Assembly: GCA_050248855.1 (NCBI GenBank)
Contig: JBFWRP010000001.1
Coordinates: 59,134-123,133, forward strand
DNA from: Planctomycetota bacterium
GTDB taxonomy: Bacteria; Planctomycetota; PLA2; JAEUHO01
Length of the DNA: 64,000 bases
Direction: 5' to 3'
Every line of letters begins with the position of its first letter. The stretch's first letter is position 1. The notes under the pieces were generated by a model that saw only the letters and a list, made by a program, of their open reading frames with translations, had not been told where the DNA came from and ran no database searches. Below, piece after piece: positions 2,822 through 48,664 of this stretch. Position numbers and translations under genes: made by a program.

Positions 2822-3867
2822 GCAGCCTCCAAGGGGGTGACACGCGAAACGACGACGAGACCGACGGGCGCACCGGGCCGCGCGTCGACATCGGCCAGGG
2901 CCTCGACGCGCGTCCCGGCGACATCCGCGACGACGTGCGTGCCGTGGGCCGTCTCGAAGCGGTCGACCACGGTCGCCGCCACGCCCTCGTGCGGCGCGCG
3001 CGCCCGCACGTCCGCAGGGCGCAGCGCAAGCCTGACCGCGCGACCGTCCGTGGCGCCGGGACCGCCTGCCGGCTCCAAGGGGCCGAGCACGGTATCGAGC
3101 GCGGTCCCGCGCCACGTTGCCGGCAGCAGCGTGACGGCGCCAAAGGCGCGCGCGGCGGCCTCGGTGCGCGGGGCCCGAAGGACGTCGCGCGGGACGCCCG
3201 ACTCGGCCACACGGCCTGCCTCGAGGACGGCGACCTGGTCCGCGATCTCCAGGGCGTCATCGGGATCGTGCGTCACGAGGACGGCCGTGTGACGGCGCTC
3301 GCGGGCCAGCTCGCGCAACAAGGCACGCAGGGCTTGACGCCGCGTCGGGTCGACGTGGGCCAGGGGCTCGTCGTAGAGGACGAGCCCGGGCTCGGCGGCC
3401 AGCGTCCGGGCGATGGCGACGCGCTGCCGCTCGCCACCGGACAGCGCGCCCGGCCGGCGTCGTGCAAGCGCGGGCGGCAAGCCGACGCGATCGAACCACG
3501 CCGCGACCTCCGCACGACGACCGCGACCCGTCCCCGAGGCGCGCAGCGCAAACGCCACGTGATCGCCGGCCGTGAGGTGCGGCCAGAGCTCCAGGCCTTG
3601 GAACACGACGCCCACGCGACGCGCCTCCGGGGCCACGTGTACACCCTCGCCGTCCAGCAGGCGGTCGCCCAGACGCACGGTCCCGCTTCGCGGGCGCACG
3701 AGACCGGCCAACGCCCGCAGCAGCGTCGTCTTGCCGGCGCCACTCGTGCCGAGGAGCGCCAGCGTCGTCTCCGCCTCGTGGTCGAACGTGATGCCATGGA
3801 GCACGGCCGGCGCAGCGGCGTGGGGCGCCACGACGAGCTCGCGTACGGAGAGGGACTGGCCGTTCAT
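2818..3867 (-). CDS. ABC transporter ATP-binding protein with C-terminal TOBE-like domain (ModC/FbpC/PotA-like)
   Basis: Walker A GTSGAGKTT, ABC signature LSGGERQRVAIAR, Walker B LVLYDEPLAHVD, H-loop VTHD. A C-terminal transport-associated OB-like extension of about 110 aa. Start MNGQSL at 3867 overlaps the HEAT protein stop (ATGA). Confidence 0.85.
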   Translation of the reverse strand: MNGQSLSVRELVVAPHAAAPAVLHGITFDHEAETTLALLGTSGAGKTTLLRALAGLVRPRSGTVRLGDRLLDGEGVHVAPEARRVGVVFQGLELWPHLTAGDHVAFALRASGTGRGRRAEVAAWFDRVGLPPALARRRPGALSGGERQRVAIARTLAAEPGLVLYDEPLAHVDPTRRQALRALLRELARERRHTAVLVTHDPDDALEIADQVAVLEAGRVAESGVPRDVLRAPRTEAAARAFGAVTLLPATWRGTALDTVLGPLEPAGGPGATDGRAVRLALRPADVRARAPHEGVAATVVDRFETAHGTHVVADVAGTRVEALADVDARPGAPVGLVVVSRVTPLEAA

Positions 3868-5840
3868 CGGGAACCTCGCTCGGCCAGCGCGTTCCACGCG
3901 GCGTCGACCTGCGCTCGCGTGACGTGGCGGGCCGTCTCGTCCCCCGGCTCCGACTGCGCGTCGTGGACGTGGGCCGGGAGGTCGAGGGCGCGCCGCAGCA
4001 GATCCCACCACGCGTGGCGCTGCTCGCGCGTCGGGGCCGCGAGGCCGGCCGCGACAACGCCCCACACCGCCTGCGGGCCCTCCTGCACCAGGCGCCCCAC
4101 GGTCCAGGCCCGCTGGGCGTCGCGTCCGTCCGGTGCAAGGTCCGCCAGGGCCTTCGCCACGCGCGCATCGCGCGGCGCGCCCACGAGACCGCCGAGCGCC
4201 GCGACGCGCACCTCCTCCAGGGGATCCTGCAGCAAGCGCAGCAACACCTCGAGGGCCGCGGGTACGGTGCGCGCGTAGGCCCCCAGGGCGACCGCCGCGC
4301 GCGCGCGGACCATCGGCCGTGCGTCCGTGGCCAGGTCGTCGAGCGCGGGCACGGCGCGCGGATCGCGGACGAGACCCAGCGCGAGGGCGATCTCGCTGCG
4401 GGCCACGGGGCGGACGGCCGTGGCGGCGGCCTCGACGAGTGCCGGCGTCATCGGCGGACCGATCAGCTCGATGGCGGCCTTCGAGATGATGAAGCGGCGC
4501 GCGTCGTTCTCGCGCAGGTTGTGGACGAGCTGGCGCGAAGCGGCCTGGAACGAGGGCGCCGTCTCGTCGAACGCCGTGCGCAGGAGGTCGCCCTGGTCCC
4601 GGCGCTCGTGCCACCAAGCGGCCAAGGCCTCGAACGCCGCCTGACGCTGCGGGATGCCCGCATCGGGCGTGAAGCCGTGGGCGGGAGCGCCCGGCAGATG
4701 CCGCTCGAGCGCATCCGTCGCCTCCTGCAGGACGCGGATGCGGAAACGCGCGCGACGTGGATCCAGCTGGCGCTCGATCAAGTAGCCCGCCGCACGCGGT
4801 ACGCCAAGGCGCAGCAAGGCTTCGCACGCCGCCGCATCGACGGCGAAGTAGTCGATGTTGGGCCACTCGCTCGCGGGGATGGGCGTGTCCGAGCTGCCGG
4901 GGTACTCCCAGCGATCGCGCGCGCGGATGCCGTCGCTCAGCACGCACAGGTGCCAGGCGAGGGCGGGTGCCGCCCCGGGGTCGCCGAGGTCGCCGAGCGC
5001 CGAAGCGGCCACCGTGCGCAGCCAGCCGTCGTCGGCGGCCAGCGCGCGCTCGAGATCCTCGCGCACGCGCGTGTCGCCCAGTCGACCCAGGGCCAGCGCC
5101 GCGCGGGCAGCGCGTGGCGTCCGACCGTCGGCGCCGGGGAGGTGGTTCGCCCTGCGCAGCGCGGCGAGGAGCACGTTGGCGGCGCGGCCCCGCAGCTCGT
5201 CGACGAGCCGATCGAGGCCGCGCGTCATGCGCTCGGCGTCGTCGGCCGACGCGTCGTCCAGCGCGGCGAGCGCCGGCGCCTCGCGCCGCAGGAGGTCGGT
5301 CACCGCCCCCACCGGCGAGGCGATCCCCTCCGCGAGGTCGGGGTGGAACGCCAAGTCCAGCATCAAGGCCTCCGCCACGGACGGCGAGGGGGGCCAGCGC
5401 CCCGTGATCCACGCGGGGTCGGTGTCGCGTGCGCCCAGCATCCACGCGGCGGTGGCGCGTGCGGCGCGTCGATCGGGGGCATCGACCTCGTCGGCGCGGG
5501 GCCAGGCGTCGCGGGCCGCGGCCGTCGCGAGCGATCCCACGTCCGCTTCGGTCAAGGCGCGGACCGCGAGGCCGAGCCCCACGTCGTCGTCAAACGCCGC
5601 CATGCGGGGCGCGACCTCCAGCGTGGCGACGGGGTCGGCAAGGCGCGGCTGCTCCAGGACGAGGGCCGCGGCTGCCAACCGCTCGGCGCGGCTTGCCGAC
5701 TCCCGTAGGAGGCGGTCGAGCGCGACGCGGGCCTGGGAGGCCGGAGCCTCGCCGGCCCACGCGGGAGCACGTGGTCCGCCCGCCACGGCGCATGTCACCG
5801 CCAGCAGGCCTGCTGTCACCCAAGCGCGACGGTCATGCAT
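3864..5840 (-). CDS. Secreted HEAT/PBS-lyase-repeat protein
   Basis: Internal Met MHDRRAWVTAGLLAVTCAVAGG looks like a signal peptide. Repeated ALG.LGD...A...L motifs typical of HEAT/PBS-lyase repeats. Start at 5840 overlaps the cca stop by 8 nt. Confidence 0.65.
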   Translation of the reverse strand: MHDRRAWVTAGLLAVTCAVAGGPRAPAWAGEAPASQARVALDRLLRESASRAERLAAAALVLEQPRLADPVATLEVAPRMAAFDDDVGLGLAVRALTEADVGSLATAAARDAWPRADEVDAPDRRAARATAAWMLGARDTDPAWITGRWPPSPSVAEALMLDLAFHPDLAEGIASPVGAVTDLLRREAPALAALDDASADDAERMTRGLDRLVDELRGRAANVLLAALRRANHLPGADGRTPRAARAALALGRLGDTRVREDLERALAADDGWLRTVAASALGDLGDPGAAPALAWHLCVLSDGIRARDRWEYPGSSDTPIPASEWPNIDYFAVDAAACEALLRLGVPRAAGYLIERQLDPRRARFRIRVLQEATDALERHLPGAPAHGFTPDAGIPQRQAAFEALAAWWHERRDQGDLLRTAFDETAPSFQAASRQLVHNLRENDARRFIISKAAIELIGPPMTPALVEAAATAVRPVARSEIALALGLVRDPRAVPALDDLATDARPMVRARAAVALGAYARTVPAALEVLLRLLQDPLEEVRVAALGGLVGAPRDARVAKALADLAPDGRDAQRAWTVGRLVQEGPQAVWGVVAAGLAAPTREQRHAWWDLLRRALDLPAHVHDAQSEPGDETARHVTRAQVDAAWNALAERGSR

Positions 5841-25121: not shown

Positions 25122-25754
25122 GTGCCTCGCCGCCGTTTCGACGTGCTGTTCGTGCTCCTGGTGATCGGCGGTGTCATCGCCGCCTGGGGGCATGCCTTTG
25201 CGCGCACGGCGTCCGATCCCGCCGCACGCCTGCGCGCGGACGGACGGCTTCCACCGCGGCGCATCGTCATGGCCCAGGACCCGCTTGGCGGCATGAGCGC
25301 ACAGGCGCAGCTTCCCGAGGGCGTGTCCATCGACCCCGTCACCGGAGCGCTCGTCGGCTTGGCGCTGGAGGCCGAGCCCGGCGTGACGCCGCTGCCGTGG
25401 GAGGTGCTGCGCGCCTACGAGGTGCAGCCGGGCCTCGCCGGGCTCCCCGAGGACATCCGTGCGCTGGACGGCCAGCGCGTCGTGATGCTGGGCTTCCTGC
25501 AGCCCGAGTACGACTACGAGGACATCGCCCGGTTCACGCTCGTCGAGAGCCATTGGAGCTGCTGCTACGGCGTGCCCGCAGGACTCAACGGAAGCGTCTA
25601 CGTGCAGCTGGCCGACGAGGCCCCCCGTCTGCACCTGACCGTCCAGCCCGTGCGCGTGAAGGGCACCTTCCGGGTGCGCGAGCAGAAGGAGGGGCGCATC
25701 GTCTTCAGCGTGTTCGCCCTCGACGACGCCGAGGGGCAGATCCTGGGCTGGTGA
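25122..25754 (+). CDS. DUF3299 family protein (paralog 2)
   Basis: Same architecture with CC motif HWSCCYGVPAG. A tandem paralog of the 24468 gene. Confidence 0.7.
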   Translation: MPRRRFDVLFVLLVIGGVIAAWGHAFARTASDPAARLRADGRLPPRRIVMAQDPLGGMSAQAQLPEGVSIDPVTGALVGLALEAEPGVTPLPWEVLRAYEVQPGLAGLPEDIRALDGQRVVMLGFLQPEYDYEDIARFTLVESHWSCCYGVPAGLNGSVYVQLADEAPRLHLTVQPVRVKGTFRVREQKEGRIVFSVFALDDAEGQILGW

Positions 25755-25755
25755 C

Positions 25756-25857
25756 CCGTACGGAGGCGGGAAAACATGTTGCAGGCGGCTCGGGCGGCGC
25801 CGCGGGCGTCGGGCGTGCGCCTGGCAGCCTGCAACAAGATTTCCCGCCTCCGTACCC
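25756..25857. repeat. About 100-bp palindromic element, MITE/REP-like, copy 1
   Basis: Arms CCGTACGGAGGCGGGAAAACATGTTGCAGG and CCTGCAACAAGATTTCCCGCCTCCGTACC are near-perfect inverted repeats around a spacer of about 45 nt. It sits right after the DUF3299 stop and upstream of the tmRNA. Confidence 0.7.
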
Positions 25858-25978
25858 TCGCCTCCGCACTACCCTGCGCCGCTGCTCCTTGACAAACCGA
25901 CGACGACGCACGCTCCCGCGAGCCACGTCCCTGCCCACTTGGCGGGAGGTGTGGACCGCGGGACGCCACGGCCCTCGA

Positions 25979-26332
25979 GGGGGCGAACGGATTCGACCGG
26001 AAGCCGGTCGGTTCGGGTGGCGCGCCGGGGGGCCGGACGAACCCCGTCAACAAGCGCCCGGAAACCACAGTTGCCAACAGCAACTACGCTCTCGCCGCCT
26101 AGTCGCGGCGCGGCCCCTCCTCTCTGCCCACCAGGGGAGTCGGGCCGCCATACGGTGGGCTGGTCGAGGTGTCGCCGCGGGTCGGCAGCTTGACGAGACT
26201 CTACCCGCTGGCCTTCGGCGAAGCCTGTCCCGGGCGTTTCCGCGGGTGAGACCTGAAGTACACGGACTACGCGCGTAGAGGCTCGGCTCGGCCCTTCTCG
26301 GGACGGGGGTTCGATTCCCCCCGCCTCCACCA
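25979..26332 (+). ncRNA. ssrA: tmRNA (transfer-messenger RNA)
   Basis: 5' GGGGGCGAACGGATTCGAC. Tag reading frame GCCAACAGCAACTACGCTCTCGCCGCCTAG (ANSNYALAA-stop) at about 26073..26102. 3' tRNA-like T-arm and acceptor GGGGGTTCGATTCCCCCCGCCTCCACCA. Confidence 0.9.
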
Positions 26333-32522: not shown

Positions 32523-33314
32523 GTGAAGCGTGTCGTGGGCATCGACGTGGTCGAGGACCGCACCGACGGCGCGCGCTGCGACGAGGGCTTCCTGCACCTG
32601 CGCCGCCTGCGTCTTGCCAACGTCTACGCCGACGGCACCCGCTCGGCGCCCTACGCCTGCGACGTCGTGACGCGGCGCCATGCCGACGCGGTCGCCGTGG
32701 CGCTCTACGACCACGACTCGGCGGGCCAGGTCCTCGTGTTGCTCCGCGCGGGCCTCAGGCCGCCGGTCGCGCTGCGCGGGAAGCGCCACGATCTCGTCCA
32801 GCCGGACCCGCGGACCTGGTTGCTGGTGCCGGAGGTCGTGGCGGGTGTCCTGGAAGACGACGACCGGGGCGCCGACGGCTTGCTCCGCCGCGCCCGCCTG
32901 GAGATCGCGGAAGAGGCTGGCCTCGACGTGCCGTTGGAGGCCATCGCCGTCCTGGGAGGGGCCTTCTTCCCCATGCCCGGAGCCGCCGAGGAGCGCGTCC
33001 ACGTCGTGGCGGCGCCGTTCGACGCCGCGGCCCCGCGTGCGCCGACGGGTGACGGCAGTCCCATGGAGGAGGGCGGCCAGCTCATCGTGCTGCCGCTGGA
33101 CGAAGCGATCCGCCGCTGTCGGCGCGGTGACGTGCCGGACGCGAAGAGCGAGATCGCGCTGCTGCGCCTGGCCGACCGCCTGGGCTACAGCGTGCACCAC
33201 GGCCGACGCTGGTCGGACCTTCCCGCGGATGCGCAGCCCTCGGCAAGTCGGTGTGCGTGGCTGCTCGGCGACGACGTCAGGCAAACAGGTCCAGCTGCCC
33301 CGTCGGAAGCGTGA
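32523..33314 (+). CDS. NUDIX hydrolase
   Basis: Nudix-box-like RLEIAEEAGL. GTG start. Its 3' end overlaps the convergent DUF72 gene by about 38 nt. Confidence 0.6.
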   Translation: MKRVVGIDVVEDRTDGARCDEGFLHLRRLRLANVYADGTRSAPYACDVVTRRHADAVAVALYDHDSAGQVLVLLRAGLRPPVALRGKRHDLVQPDPRTWLLVPEVVAGVLEDDDRGADGLLRRARLEIAEEAGLDVPLEAIAVLGGAFFPMPGAAEERVHVVAAPFDAAAPRAPTGDGSPMEEGGQLIVLPLDEAIRRCRRGDVPDAKSEIALLRLADRLGYSVHHGRRWSDLPADAQPSASRCAWLLGDDVRQTGPAAPSEA

Positions 33315-34203
33315 TGGCGGCCAGCTCGGGGTAGTGCCGGACGAGGCTGGCCGGGACGGGGCGCTTCCTGCCGTCCGTCCGGAACGCCAGCTGCAACGAC
33401 GCGGCGATCGCCTGGCCCCGCGGGTGGTTGTTGGCGATCACGACGGTCCGTTCGCTCGACGCCGCGATGGCTCGGATGCGCGTGGCAAGCGCGTCGAGCG
33501 ACGACGCGTCGTAGTGGTGGTCGTAGCGTGCGTCGCGACCGATGCCCGGCGTGAACCACGTGCGGTCGTTGCGACCATGGAGGCGCAGGTACCCCCAGGT
33601 CCCGAACCCGGGGGTGTCGTCGGGCAGGTGGTCCGGGGAGGCCGGCCAGTCCAGATGGACCCGGGAAGCCCCCGTGGCCGCGAGCGCCTCGAGCACGTCG
33701 GGCTCGGCATGGCTTGCGTGTCGAAGCTCCAAGGCCACGGCGTGGGGCGCGAGGGCGTCGACGAGGTGGCGCAGGCGATCCACCTGCTGGCGCGTCGCGC
33801 GCGCGTGGGCGGGCAGCTGGACCAGGACGCCCGCCAGTCGTCCGATGGCGGCGAGCGGCGTCAACGACGCCACGAAGGGGGCCAGGTCCCGGGGCGTGAC
33901 GCCGGCACCCTCGTGGGAGACGTCCCGCGGCGCCTTGACGACGACGATCAGCCGGGGGTGGCGCGCCACGACCTCGGCCCAGCGGGCCACGACCTCGACC
34001 GGGACCGGGCGGTAGAAGGTCACGTTGACCTCGATCGCATCCACCAGACGGGCGACGGCGTCCAGCAACGGGGGCCCGCTGCGCAGCGTCGCCGGGTGCA
34101 CGATGCCGGCCCAGTCCGGATAGGACCACCCGGCGACGCCGACGTGGAGCGCGGCGCGCAGGGAGGCGGGAAACGTCGTCGCAGATGGCCGGTCCACGCC
34201 CAC
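33277..34203 (-). CDS. DUF72 (YecE/UPF0759) family protein
   Basis: GWSYPDW N-terminal motif and FYR motif. The true start is probably downstream of 34203, because the first about 14 codons overlie the palindromic element. Confidence 0.7.
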   Translation of the reverse strand: MGVDRPSATTFPASLRAALHVGVAGWSYPDWAGIVHPATLRSGPPLLDAVARLVDAIEVNVTFYRPVPVEVVARWAEVVARHPRLIVVVKAPRDVSHEGAGVTPRDLAPFVASLTPLAAIGRLAGVLVQLPAHARATRQQVDRLRHLVDALAPHAVALELRHASHAEPDVLEALAATGASRVHLDWPASPDHLPDDTPGFGTWGYLRLHGRNDRTWFTPGIGRDARYDHHYDASSLDALATRIRAIAASSERTVVIANNHPRGQAIAASLQLAFRTDGRKRPVPASLVRHYPELAAITLPTGQLDLFA

Positions 34204-34255
34204 CAGGGAACGGGCCCCAGGCGCGGCTGCAACAAGATTTCCCGCCTCCGTACCG
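34160..34255. repeat. About 100-bp palindromic element, copy 2
   Basis: GGGAGGCGGGAAA...(about 60 nt)...CTGCAACAAGATTTCCCGCCTCCGTACC. The right arm is 28/28 identical to 25829..25856. Confidence 0.7.
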
Positions 34256-34355
34256 CGTCCGTACCGCGTTCGGGGTCCAAGGCCCGGTTCCGCTTGCCTT
34301 GGGCGGCGGTGCCAGCCGATGGTGAAGCGCGGCTGCCTCGCGGCAGCGCTCGACC

Positions 34356-47809: not shown

Positions 47810-48115
47810 ATGCCCGAGGCCCCCGTCGTCGAACCGGAGCAGACGACCGACACCACGACGCAGGACGCGCCGCGGTGGAAGGTCCTGCTCCACGACGACG
47901 ACGTCACGACCATCGACTTCGTCGTGTGGCTCTTGATGCGCGTCTTTGCCAAGCCGGCGGAGGAAGCCGTGGAGCTGACGCTCAAGGTGCACCGCACGGG
48001 CGTGGCCATCGTGGCCGTCACCAGCTTCGAGCGCGCCGAGCTCTACGTGGAGCAGGTCCACTCGCTGGCCCGCCCCCGCGGCTATCCCCTCACCGCCACC
48101 CTCGAACAGGCCTAG
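47810..48115 (+). CDS. clpS: ATP-dependent Clp protease adaptor
   Basis: RWKVLLHDDDVTTIDFVVWLLMRVF...HRTGVAIVAVTSFERAELYVEQV matches the ClpS core. 35 nt downstream of the giant ORF. No clpA follows. Confidence 0.85.
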   Translation: MPEAPVVEPEQTTDTTTQDAPRWKVLLHDDDVTTIDFVVWLLMRVFAKPAEEAVELTLKVHRTGVAIVAVTSFERAELYVEQVHSLARPRGYPLTATLEQA

Positions 48116-48310: not shown

Positions 48311-48400
48311 GTGTGTACGGAGGCGGGGCTTCCTTCCGCAGCTTGCCGATCGGTGCCCGCGCCTGGGAGGGATTCCTTCGGCAGGCTGCGGAAGGATTCC
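48311..48400. repeat. Degenerate third copy of the palindromic element
   Basis: Left terminus TGTGTACGGAGGCGGGG and right terminus GGATTCCCCGCCACC resemble the GTACGGAGGCGGGAAA / TTTCCCGCCTCCGTAC ends. An internal CCTTCCGCAGC / GCTGCGGAAGG stem is also present. Confidence 0.45.
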
Positions 48401-48664
48401 CCGCCACCTGCTGCCTCTGGTCCGCGGGTTCATCCCCCGCGCCGAAGGCGCAACCTGGCTTCTCATCCCCATGCCCAGGCCCCGATTGTCCAAGGGGCCG
48501 CCTACGCCGGCGGGCGACATGTCGCTCGACTACGTGATCGGGGCGCCAGGGCGAGGGCCGCGGGCAGCCGCGCGGTCTGTCCACGCAAGGACCCAGCGCG
48601 GCAATCCGCGGCCCCGCACCTGACGCGCCGCACCTTCGCGCGACACGAGCTTCGACCGACCCAG

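Follow-up and report, generated by a model that had tools for sequence, protein, structure and literature searches.

Palindromic elements beside tmRNA and DUF72 genes of a Planctomycetota bacterium as probable REP/RAYT-type repeats, with arms that flank Y1 transposase genes in related contigs

What are the palindromic elements of about 100 bp that lie at gene boundaries in the genome of a Planctomycetota bacterium, and how might they have come to be there? The question arises from a contiguous stretch of 64,000 nucleotides (hereafter the window; 74 % GC), in which a first-pass annotation, made by reading the letters, had described a family of MITE- or REP-like palindromes in three copies. On the evidence set out below, the elements are, with a probability of roughly 0.8, non-autonomous repeats of the REP/RAYT type, the arm of which constitutes the TIRs of a Y1 transposase gene in related Planctomycetota. 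They form a new family within a class of elements that is already known, and the finding opens no new category of biology.

Each element is a head-to-head doublet of an arm of approximately 30 nt and is thus REPIN-like (Table 1). Copy 1 possesses perfect termini of 16 nt, GTACGGAGGCGGGAAA...TTTCCCGCCTCCGTAC, together with an inner inverted repeat, TTGCAGGC/GCCTGCAA. The degenerate left arm of copy 2 reads GCAGGGAGGCGGGAAA, and its right arm is identical to that of copy 1 at 28 of 28 nt, the two loci lying 8.4 kb apart. Copy 3, with the arms GTACGGAGGCGGGG-CTTCCTTCCGCAGC and the inverse GCAGGTGGCGGGGAATCCTTCCGCAGC, follows the same plan of two inverted arms, each ending in CCGCAGC, and has a 19-bp inner stem of its own; what it has in common with copies 1 and 2 is only GTACGGAGGCGGG, at its left. 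It is a diverged relative and not a member of the same subfamily. When the 64-kb window was searched with an arm profile, the four arms of copies 1 and 2 and the left end of copy 3 were the only matches, and within copy 3 only the first 13 nt scored.

Table 1. Positions of the palindromic elements and of the genes next to them (numbered from the first letter of the window)
Feature	Position	Strand	Remarks
DUF3299-type ORF	25122-25754	+	Homologues carry PF11736; stop codon abuts copy 1
Copy 1	25758-25855 (GTAC...GTAC)	.	Intact doublet with two inverted arms
Copy 1 arms	Left 25758-25788, right 25825-25855		GC-rich spacer between the arms
tmRNA (ssrA) gene	25979-26332	+	Rfam RF00023, 136.8 bits; downstream of copy 1
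DUF72 ORF	33277-34203	-	First 18 codons encoded by copy 2
Copy 2	34157-34254	.	Doublet; left arm 34159-34188 degenerate, right arm 34225-34254 intact
Tandem reiteration	34248-34269	+	11 nt, CCGTACCGCGT x2; overlaps right terminus of copy 2; read directly
Copy 3	48315-48411	.	Diverged relative; 200 nt past the end of the clpS-frame ORF

Repetition of this kind far exceeds what the composition of the window would yield. Relative to dinucleotide-preserving shuffles of the window, the 17-mer with up to three mismatches occurs five times (0.20 expected), the 12-mer core five times (0.26 expected) and the 28-mer three times (0.00 expected), and none of the shuffles reached the observed counts. A generic repeat finder run over the whole window did not list the element and returned 3413 inverted-repeat pairs, which are GC-rich noise. 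Upon folding, copy 1 gives a z of -8.7 both as RNA (-78.1 kcal/mol) and as DNA (-47.1 kcal/mol); the fold of copy 3 reaches a z of about -6, and the weakest fold is that of copy 2, with z between -2 and -4.5. Two inverted units with a spacer between them, able to form one long hairpin, are what characterizes a REPIN in REPIN/RAYT systems. A single arm, by comparison, folds no better than its shuffles (z +0.8) and is not self-palindromic, and the same holds for the single arms found close to transposase genes in contigs L238 and L239 (z +0.9). Hence, the palindromes described earlier are real, as two clear copies and one degenerate copy, and their inverted-repeat termini and long hairpins stand for copies 1 and 3 (z of about -6 to -9) and, in weaker form, for copy 2. 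The 28-nt identity of the right arms was likewise borne out, and the positions first given for copies 1 and 2 were right to within a few bases; the third copy is genuine and degenerate, and it runs to 48411 instead of 48400.

The surroundings of the elements were also largely read correctly, in that DUF3299, tmRNA, a divergent pair of DUF72 and GNAT-like genes and a clpS-frame ORF (ending at 48115) were all confirmed. Copies 1 and 3 are intergenic, as had been said of all three, but copy 2, which sits between the divergent DUF72 and GNAT-like genes, extends into the DUF72 ORF at its 5' end. Both candidate GTG starts of that ORF (34203 and 34197, minus strand) are located within copy 2, and the window ORF shows homology to its orthologue in contig L127 from residue 19 onwards only. 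Copy 1 starts 3 nt past the stop codon (TGA) of the DUF3299-type ORF; at its other end, 33 nt lie between it and a conserved TTGACA box upstream of the tmRNA gene, and the sequence right after its hairpin is CCTCGCCTCC. Between 25500 and 26400, neither a terminator-like site nor a T-run was found in a search for intrinsic terminators. In the window, nothing but the tmRNA reaches an Rfam gathering threshold, and a permissive comparison of the element with Rfam gave sub-threshold matches to generic miRNA-precursor hairpins (no more than 35 bits, against 89-168). GGAGG/CCTCC could also be read as a Shine-Dalgarno/anti-Shine-Dalgarno motif; this reading was rejected, since the motif is part of a mobile repeat and orthologous sites lack that repeat.

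That absence was established by comparison with relatives. Among the named relatives of the DUF3299 protein, the closest, with 86 % identity, belongs to a Planctomycetes MAG. Three contigs are syntenic with the window, namely L127 and L128, with DUF3299 proteins 86 % identical to that of the window, and L134, with one that is 75 % identical; the shared order runs from a MacB/FtsX ABC transporter through DUF3299, tmRNA, redoxin and SmpB to the GNAT-like gene, and DUF72 is present at the syntenic locus in L127/L128 only, not in L134. An arm-profile search across the 20-kb L127/L128 and L134 loci found neither the motif nor the arm. In alignments, copy 1 (approximately 100 nt) is missing from the orthologous spacer of both L127 and L134, and around the missing element the sequence of the window is conserved in L127 at the coding ends and at the box ahead of the tmRNA; copy 2, in turn, is missing between the DUF72 and GNAT genes of L127. 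The first-pass annotation had stated that its reading would fall if the motif proved to be conserved within regulatory regions of orthologous loci. The comparison gave the contrary result, with orthologous sites empty in two species, and since the syntenic sites of sister species are empty, the elements are not conserved regulatory sequences. In contig L240, from a near-identical strain whose DUF3299 protein is identical to that of the window, copy 1 occupies the same site; the two strains differ at 7 of the 98 positions of the element, compared with 0 of 75 in adjacent coding sequence, 4 of 123 in the rest of the spacer and 0 of 121 in the tmRNA. Judged from these alignments, the element is a lineage-specific insertion that drifts fast. 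Two smaller features of the same spacer may be recorded here. A box, CTACCCT..GCCGCTGCTCCTTGACA, ~85 nt upstream of the tmRNA (25889-25978), is conserved between the window and L127 and not clearly so in L134, and it likely represents the ssrA promoter region. Additionally, the window has a 20-nt insertion (~25932-25951) just upstream of the tmRNA relative to both L127 and L134.

Beyond the window, the unit that is conserved across loci is the arm of about 30 nt, GTACGGAGGCGGGAAA-N4-GT(T/C)GCAG. Its boundary is sharp, (G/A)TAC being conserved and the next outward base random; its tag is GTAC, not GTAG; and the arm in the form GTACGGAGGCGGGAAA-N4-GTYGCAG had no match in the literature searched. 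In other Planctomycetota contigs, the arm occurs as singlets, doublets and tandem arrays. Contig L060 holds eight arms within 8 kb, including a compact doublet of 70 nt and an array of arms in direct tandem (4400-4515) that immediately follows the end of a gene, has a period of 42 nt and resembles BIME-like REP clusters. A CRISPR-like reading of these tandem arms was discarded, as the period is too short, spacers are lacking and the arms are inverted elsewhere. The same contig contains an IS110-like transposase fragment (2736-2990). Four further contigs, L138 (with two copies), L164, L209 and L224, show the same (G/A)TACGGAGGCGGGAAC termini, and those in L138, L164 and L224 enclose a near-identical, perfectly palindromic interior of 50 nt that is unrelated to the interior of the window's elements. 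This subfamily, with the same 15-nt termini, occupies four different insertion sites (two in L138, one each in L164 and L224). The combination of conserved termini with interchangeable interiors indicates that the termini are the part recognised by a protein.

In a collection of genomes, the 16-mer TTTCCCGCCTCCGTAC gave at least 117 matches, which were mostly single, by chance and in unrelated taxa; the few with extra similarity were recognised from their extended context as an ABC-transporter coding motif and set aside, and L025 and L060 were shown to be genuine among these loci by a re-scan with a looser core. Against viral contigs, the 16-mer gave nine single chance matches only. A scan of metagenomes with the pattern GGAGGCGGGAA-N45-75-TTCCCGCCTCC returned 100 loci, and (G/A)TAC-tagged termini were found among them only in L138, L164, L209 and L224. 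Most of the 100 were rejected as unrelated sequences sharing the 11-mer, comprising CGTC-tagged REP doublets and GGGAAGC-type simple repeats. Short reiterations lie at the outer end of some elements; contig L025 has repeated CGTAC/CCTCCGTAC beside an element end (5526-5565) and L164 has ACTAGTACGGAGGCGGG twice in the like position (3678-3710). Together with the reiteration in the window, these outer-terminus repeats at three independent loci may be footprints of cleavage and rejoining, or they may stem from slippage.

The arm is physically associated with Y1/HUH transposase genes. In five independent contigs (L025, L235, L238, L239 and L241), it lies 30-80 nt upstream or on both sides of such a gene, and four of these (all but L025) were retrieved by protein homology alone, starting from the L025 ORF. 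L025, from a Planctomycetota MAG, contains a truncated ORF of 90 aa that resembles the N-terminal half of a Y1 transposase (Pfam Y1_Tnp, E 0.055); it is enclosed by two inverted arms, at 5154-5184 and 5506-5536, with some 350 nt between them. L235 has arms on both sides of the gene (1-23 and 946-976). The upstream arm is seen in L238 (arm 370-399, gene start 445), in L239 (arm 1-31, gene start ~66), which begins exactly with GTACGGAGGCGGGAAAACTCGTCGCAAG, and, in degenerate form, in L241 (arm 1272-1293, about 50 nt before the gene start at 1341), these three contigs ending before the downstream side. Two contigs start in or at an arm, where an assembly would be expected to break if the repeat is multi-copy.

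The encoded proteins match the NCBIfam model NF047646 (REP-associated tyrosine transposase) with E values from 5e-14 to 5e-6, at 27-55 bits and hence below the curated cut-off of 80 bits; P0019 and P0022 match over the whole profile (E 2e-11 to 5e-14) and keep both the HUH motif (HFH) and the tyrosine motif (RYIxHNP). Matches to Pfam Y1_Tnp are weak, with only P0017 and P0025 passing 23 bits, and the JGI name for one homologue is RayT. A sequence search of P0022 against the PDB gave no match, and tblastn found no Y1 transposase gene in the 64-kb window. Most of the arm-flanked genes (L025, 5206-5478; L235, 69-930; L238, 445-810) are cut short or shift out of frame ahead of the catalytic-Tyr motif, and P0019 and P0022 are the only proteins among those inspected in which both motifs are kept. 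With most arm-adjacent transposase copies decayed, current activity is uncertain.

How far do these observations favour a REP/RAYT-type repeat over other kinds of palindrome? GC-rich DNA does generate many spurious inverted repeats, as the 3413 pairs in the window attest, and the 16-mer alone matches many unrelated genomes by chance; an accident of low complexity in a 74 % GC genome can nevertheless be practically discounted, given that the shuffles never attained the observed counts, that arms 8.4 kb apart are identical over 28 nt and that the same 30-nt arm turned up in contigs retrieved through protein homology alone. A structure under selection in the host, such as a factor-independent terminator or attenuator, a structured small RNA or a palindromic protein-binding site, is quite unlikely. 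It would accord with the very stable hairpin that copy 1 places directly behind a stop codon and ahead of ssrA, with the position of every copy at a gene boundary and with the precedent of enterobacterial REP-type repeats co-opted for mRNA stabilisation and termination, to which a passage in PMC3733652 refers. However, the element is absent in the orthologous spacers of two relatives that keep the flanking genes and the probable ssrA promoter box, it diverges faster than its surroundings between near-identical strains, it has no T-run, no terminator-like site and no Rfam family at threshold, and the three loci share no functional theme.

It is very unlikely, also, that the elements are classical MITEs derived from an IS with a DDE transposase, for example an IS630/Tc1-like one inserting at TA, in which case the element proper would be CGGAGG...CCTCCG and the TA a target duplication. 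TA does bracket every intact copy (TAC...GTA), and the elements resemble MITEs in their size and their terminal inverted repeats. Yet the base outside the TA is itself conserved, with C after GTA in all of the intact right ends listed and G/A before TAC, which is not expected of target flanks. Direct repeats longer than TA flank none of the approximately 12 intact copies, and the TA is part of the conserved (G/A)TAC terminus. In the retrieved loci, moreover, the only coding sequences found between or beside arms are Y1 transposase genes (five contigs), and the sole DDE-type relic, the IS110-like fragment in L060, has no matching pair of arms to bound it. With neither a target-site duplication nor a DDE parent found, the DDE-type MITE is not supported. 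The broader reading as MITE- or REP-like palindromic repeats, by contrast, gains from the empty orthologous sites, the recurrence in other Planctomycetota and the flanking of Y1 genes, and 'REP-like' proves the better half of the label given that the arm flanks REP-type tyrosine transposase genes.

The REP/RAYT-type repeats to which the elements are thus compared differ among themselves. Like REPINs, the elements are doublets of inverted units, about 100 nt long, able to form a long hairpin, non-autonomous, intergenic and without target duplication. REPIN-RAYT systems are reportedly also treated in work by Nunvar et al. from 2010. As in the REPIN-RAYT systems of Bertels & Rainey 2011 (PMC3116915; also PMC3337134), the units flank a transposase gene in inverted orientation, here in the related contigs. 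Classical REPs, however, are imperfect palindromes with a 5' GTAG or GTGG tag, whereas here a single unit does not fold and the tag is GTAC. RAYTs are typically single-copy and conserved (in proteobacteria), whereas several decayed transposase copies were encountered here in metagenomes, and REPIN/RAYT systems attain tens to hundreds of copies per genome, compared with two plus one degenerate copy within 64 kb.

A variant of such systems, the TIR repeats and TIRtrons with TIRYT transposases, was described by Di Nocera, De Gregorio & Rocco 2013 (PMC3733652). It comprises RAYT-like genes with long, non-palindromic inverted repeats that also occur dispersed as singlets, dimers and clusters, in families that are moderately abundant in the genome, and tyrosine transposases with flanking repeats were noted in the planctomycete Rhodopirellula baltica (PMC3733652). 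TIR repeats and TIRYTs probably correspond, tentatively, to TnpA_REP subclass 2.1 (Quentin et al. 2018, PMC6006769). The related contigs agree with this variant in that long inverted repeats without self-complementarity lie on either side of a RAYT-like Y1/HUH gene, in that the same repeats are dispersed (as doublets in the window, as a tandem array and a doublet in L060 and as two copies in L138), and in the RAYT-type HUH and catalytic-Tyr motifs of P0019 and P0022, at an NF047646 score that is below the cut-off. The C-terminal HTH domain of TIRYTs (Bac_DnaA_C, HTH_23 or HTH_28) has at most a possible counterpart here, the ORF downstream of the core in L235 matching HTH_23 marginally, with E 0.065 and 13.5 bits against a cut-off of 24.6 bits. 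The motif GGGGWSAS is found in most, not all, TIRYT repeats (PMC3733652), and, unlike these, the present arm is without it in all arms read directly. L242, a contig with a distant, 45 %-identical Y1 transposase (P0031) that passes Pfam Y1_Tnp, has GGTGCCTGACCCCA, which contains GGGGWSAS, on both sides of the gene (150-290 and 940-1000). An arm that is not self-palindromic and a GTAC tag make the TIR repeat/TIRYT variant a better fit than classical REPs. Several transposase copies are truncated or frame-shifted, and assemblies break at the arms; it is conceivable, though doubtful, that the arm-flanked Y1 unit is itself multi-copy and decaying, in which case the family would be intermediate between 'TIRtrons', autonomous and IS-like, and domesticated RAYTs that are single-copy and have a REPIN population; if the unit is multi-copy, the reiterated GTAC termini could be cleavage/rejoining footprints.

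Two further systems invite comparison. With IS200/IS605 insertion sequences and their palindrome-associated derivatives, the family shares a Y1 HUH transposase, the lack of target duplication and, presumably, single-stranded DNA hairpins as substrates; the ends of IS200/IS605 are not mutual inverted repeats and carry subterminal hairpins, unlike the arms here, and NCBIfam scores the proteins as REP-type, the one IS200 match listed (P0025) having E 0.004 as opposed to 1e-14 for the REP-type model. The CGTC-tagged REP doublets treated in the 2013 study have in common with the elements the 11-mer GGAGGCGGGAA and the doublet architecture. In that family, however, the units are CGTC-tagged and the 11-mer makes up one half of a short self-palindrome, TTCCCGC-GGAG-GCGGGAA; neither flanks nor interiors are related to those of the elements, and the host contigs are of lower GC. 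The CGTC doublets dominated the metagenome scan because of the shared 11-mer and architecture, and the resemblance is an artefact of the search, not homology. CGTC repeats are without a dedicated transposase (Di Nocera et al. 2013, PMC3733652). One CGTC-tagged doublet, in L163 (4039-4123), lies some 550 nt from a Y1-transposase-like ORF (4663-4869, minus strand) that matches the L025 fragment in tblastn with E 5e-7.

If the elements are REP/RAYT-type repeats, a doublet would fold into a long hairpin on single-stranded DNA, for example on the lagging-strand template, and an enzyme of the RAYT/TIRYT type, presumably encoded elsewhere in the source genome, would act on it in trans. The transposase would recognise the conserved outer 16-30 nt or so of the arm, and would cut and rejoin at the GTAC ends, leaving no target duplication. 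Copies would in this way insert into intergenic DNA and subsequently decay. Effects on the expression of neighbouring genes can also be envisaged. The hairpin of copy 1 could stabilise the 3' end of the upstream mRNA or block read-through into ssrA, and the 5' end of the DUF72 gene appears to have been replaced by copy 2, which would now supply the start codon.

The window offers two cases in which an element reshapes the end of a gene, one as a stop-abutting hairpin upstream of ssrA and the other as the donor of a start codon to DUF72. More broadly, the arm consensus and the candidate cognate transposases extend the catalogue of REP/RAYT-type (TIR/TIRYT) systems to high-GC Planctomycetota, give annotators a means of recognising these hairpins and explain breaks in the assembly of such metagenomes. 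Elsewhere in the window, the plus strand between 38968 and 47775 is taken up by a single, very large ORF of 2935 aa with a signal-anchor-like N-terminus.
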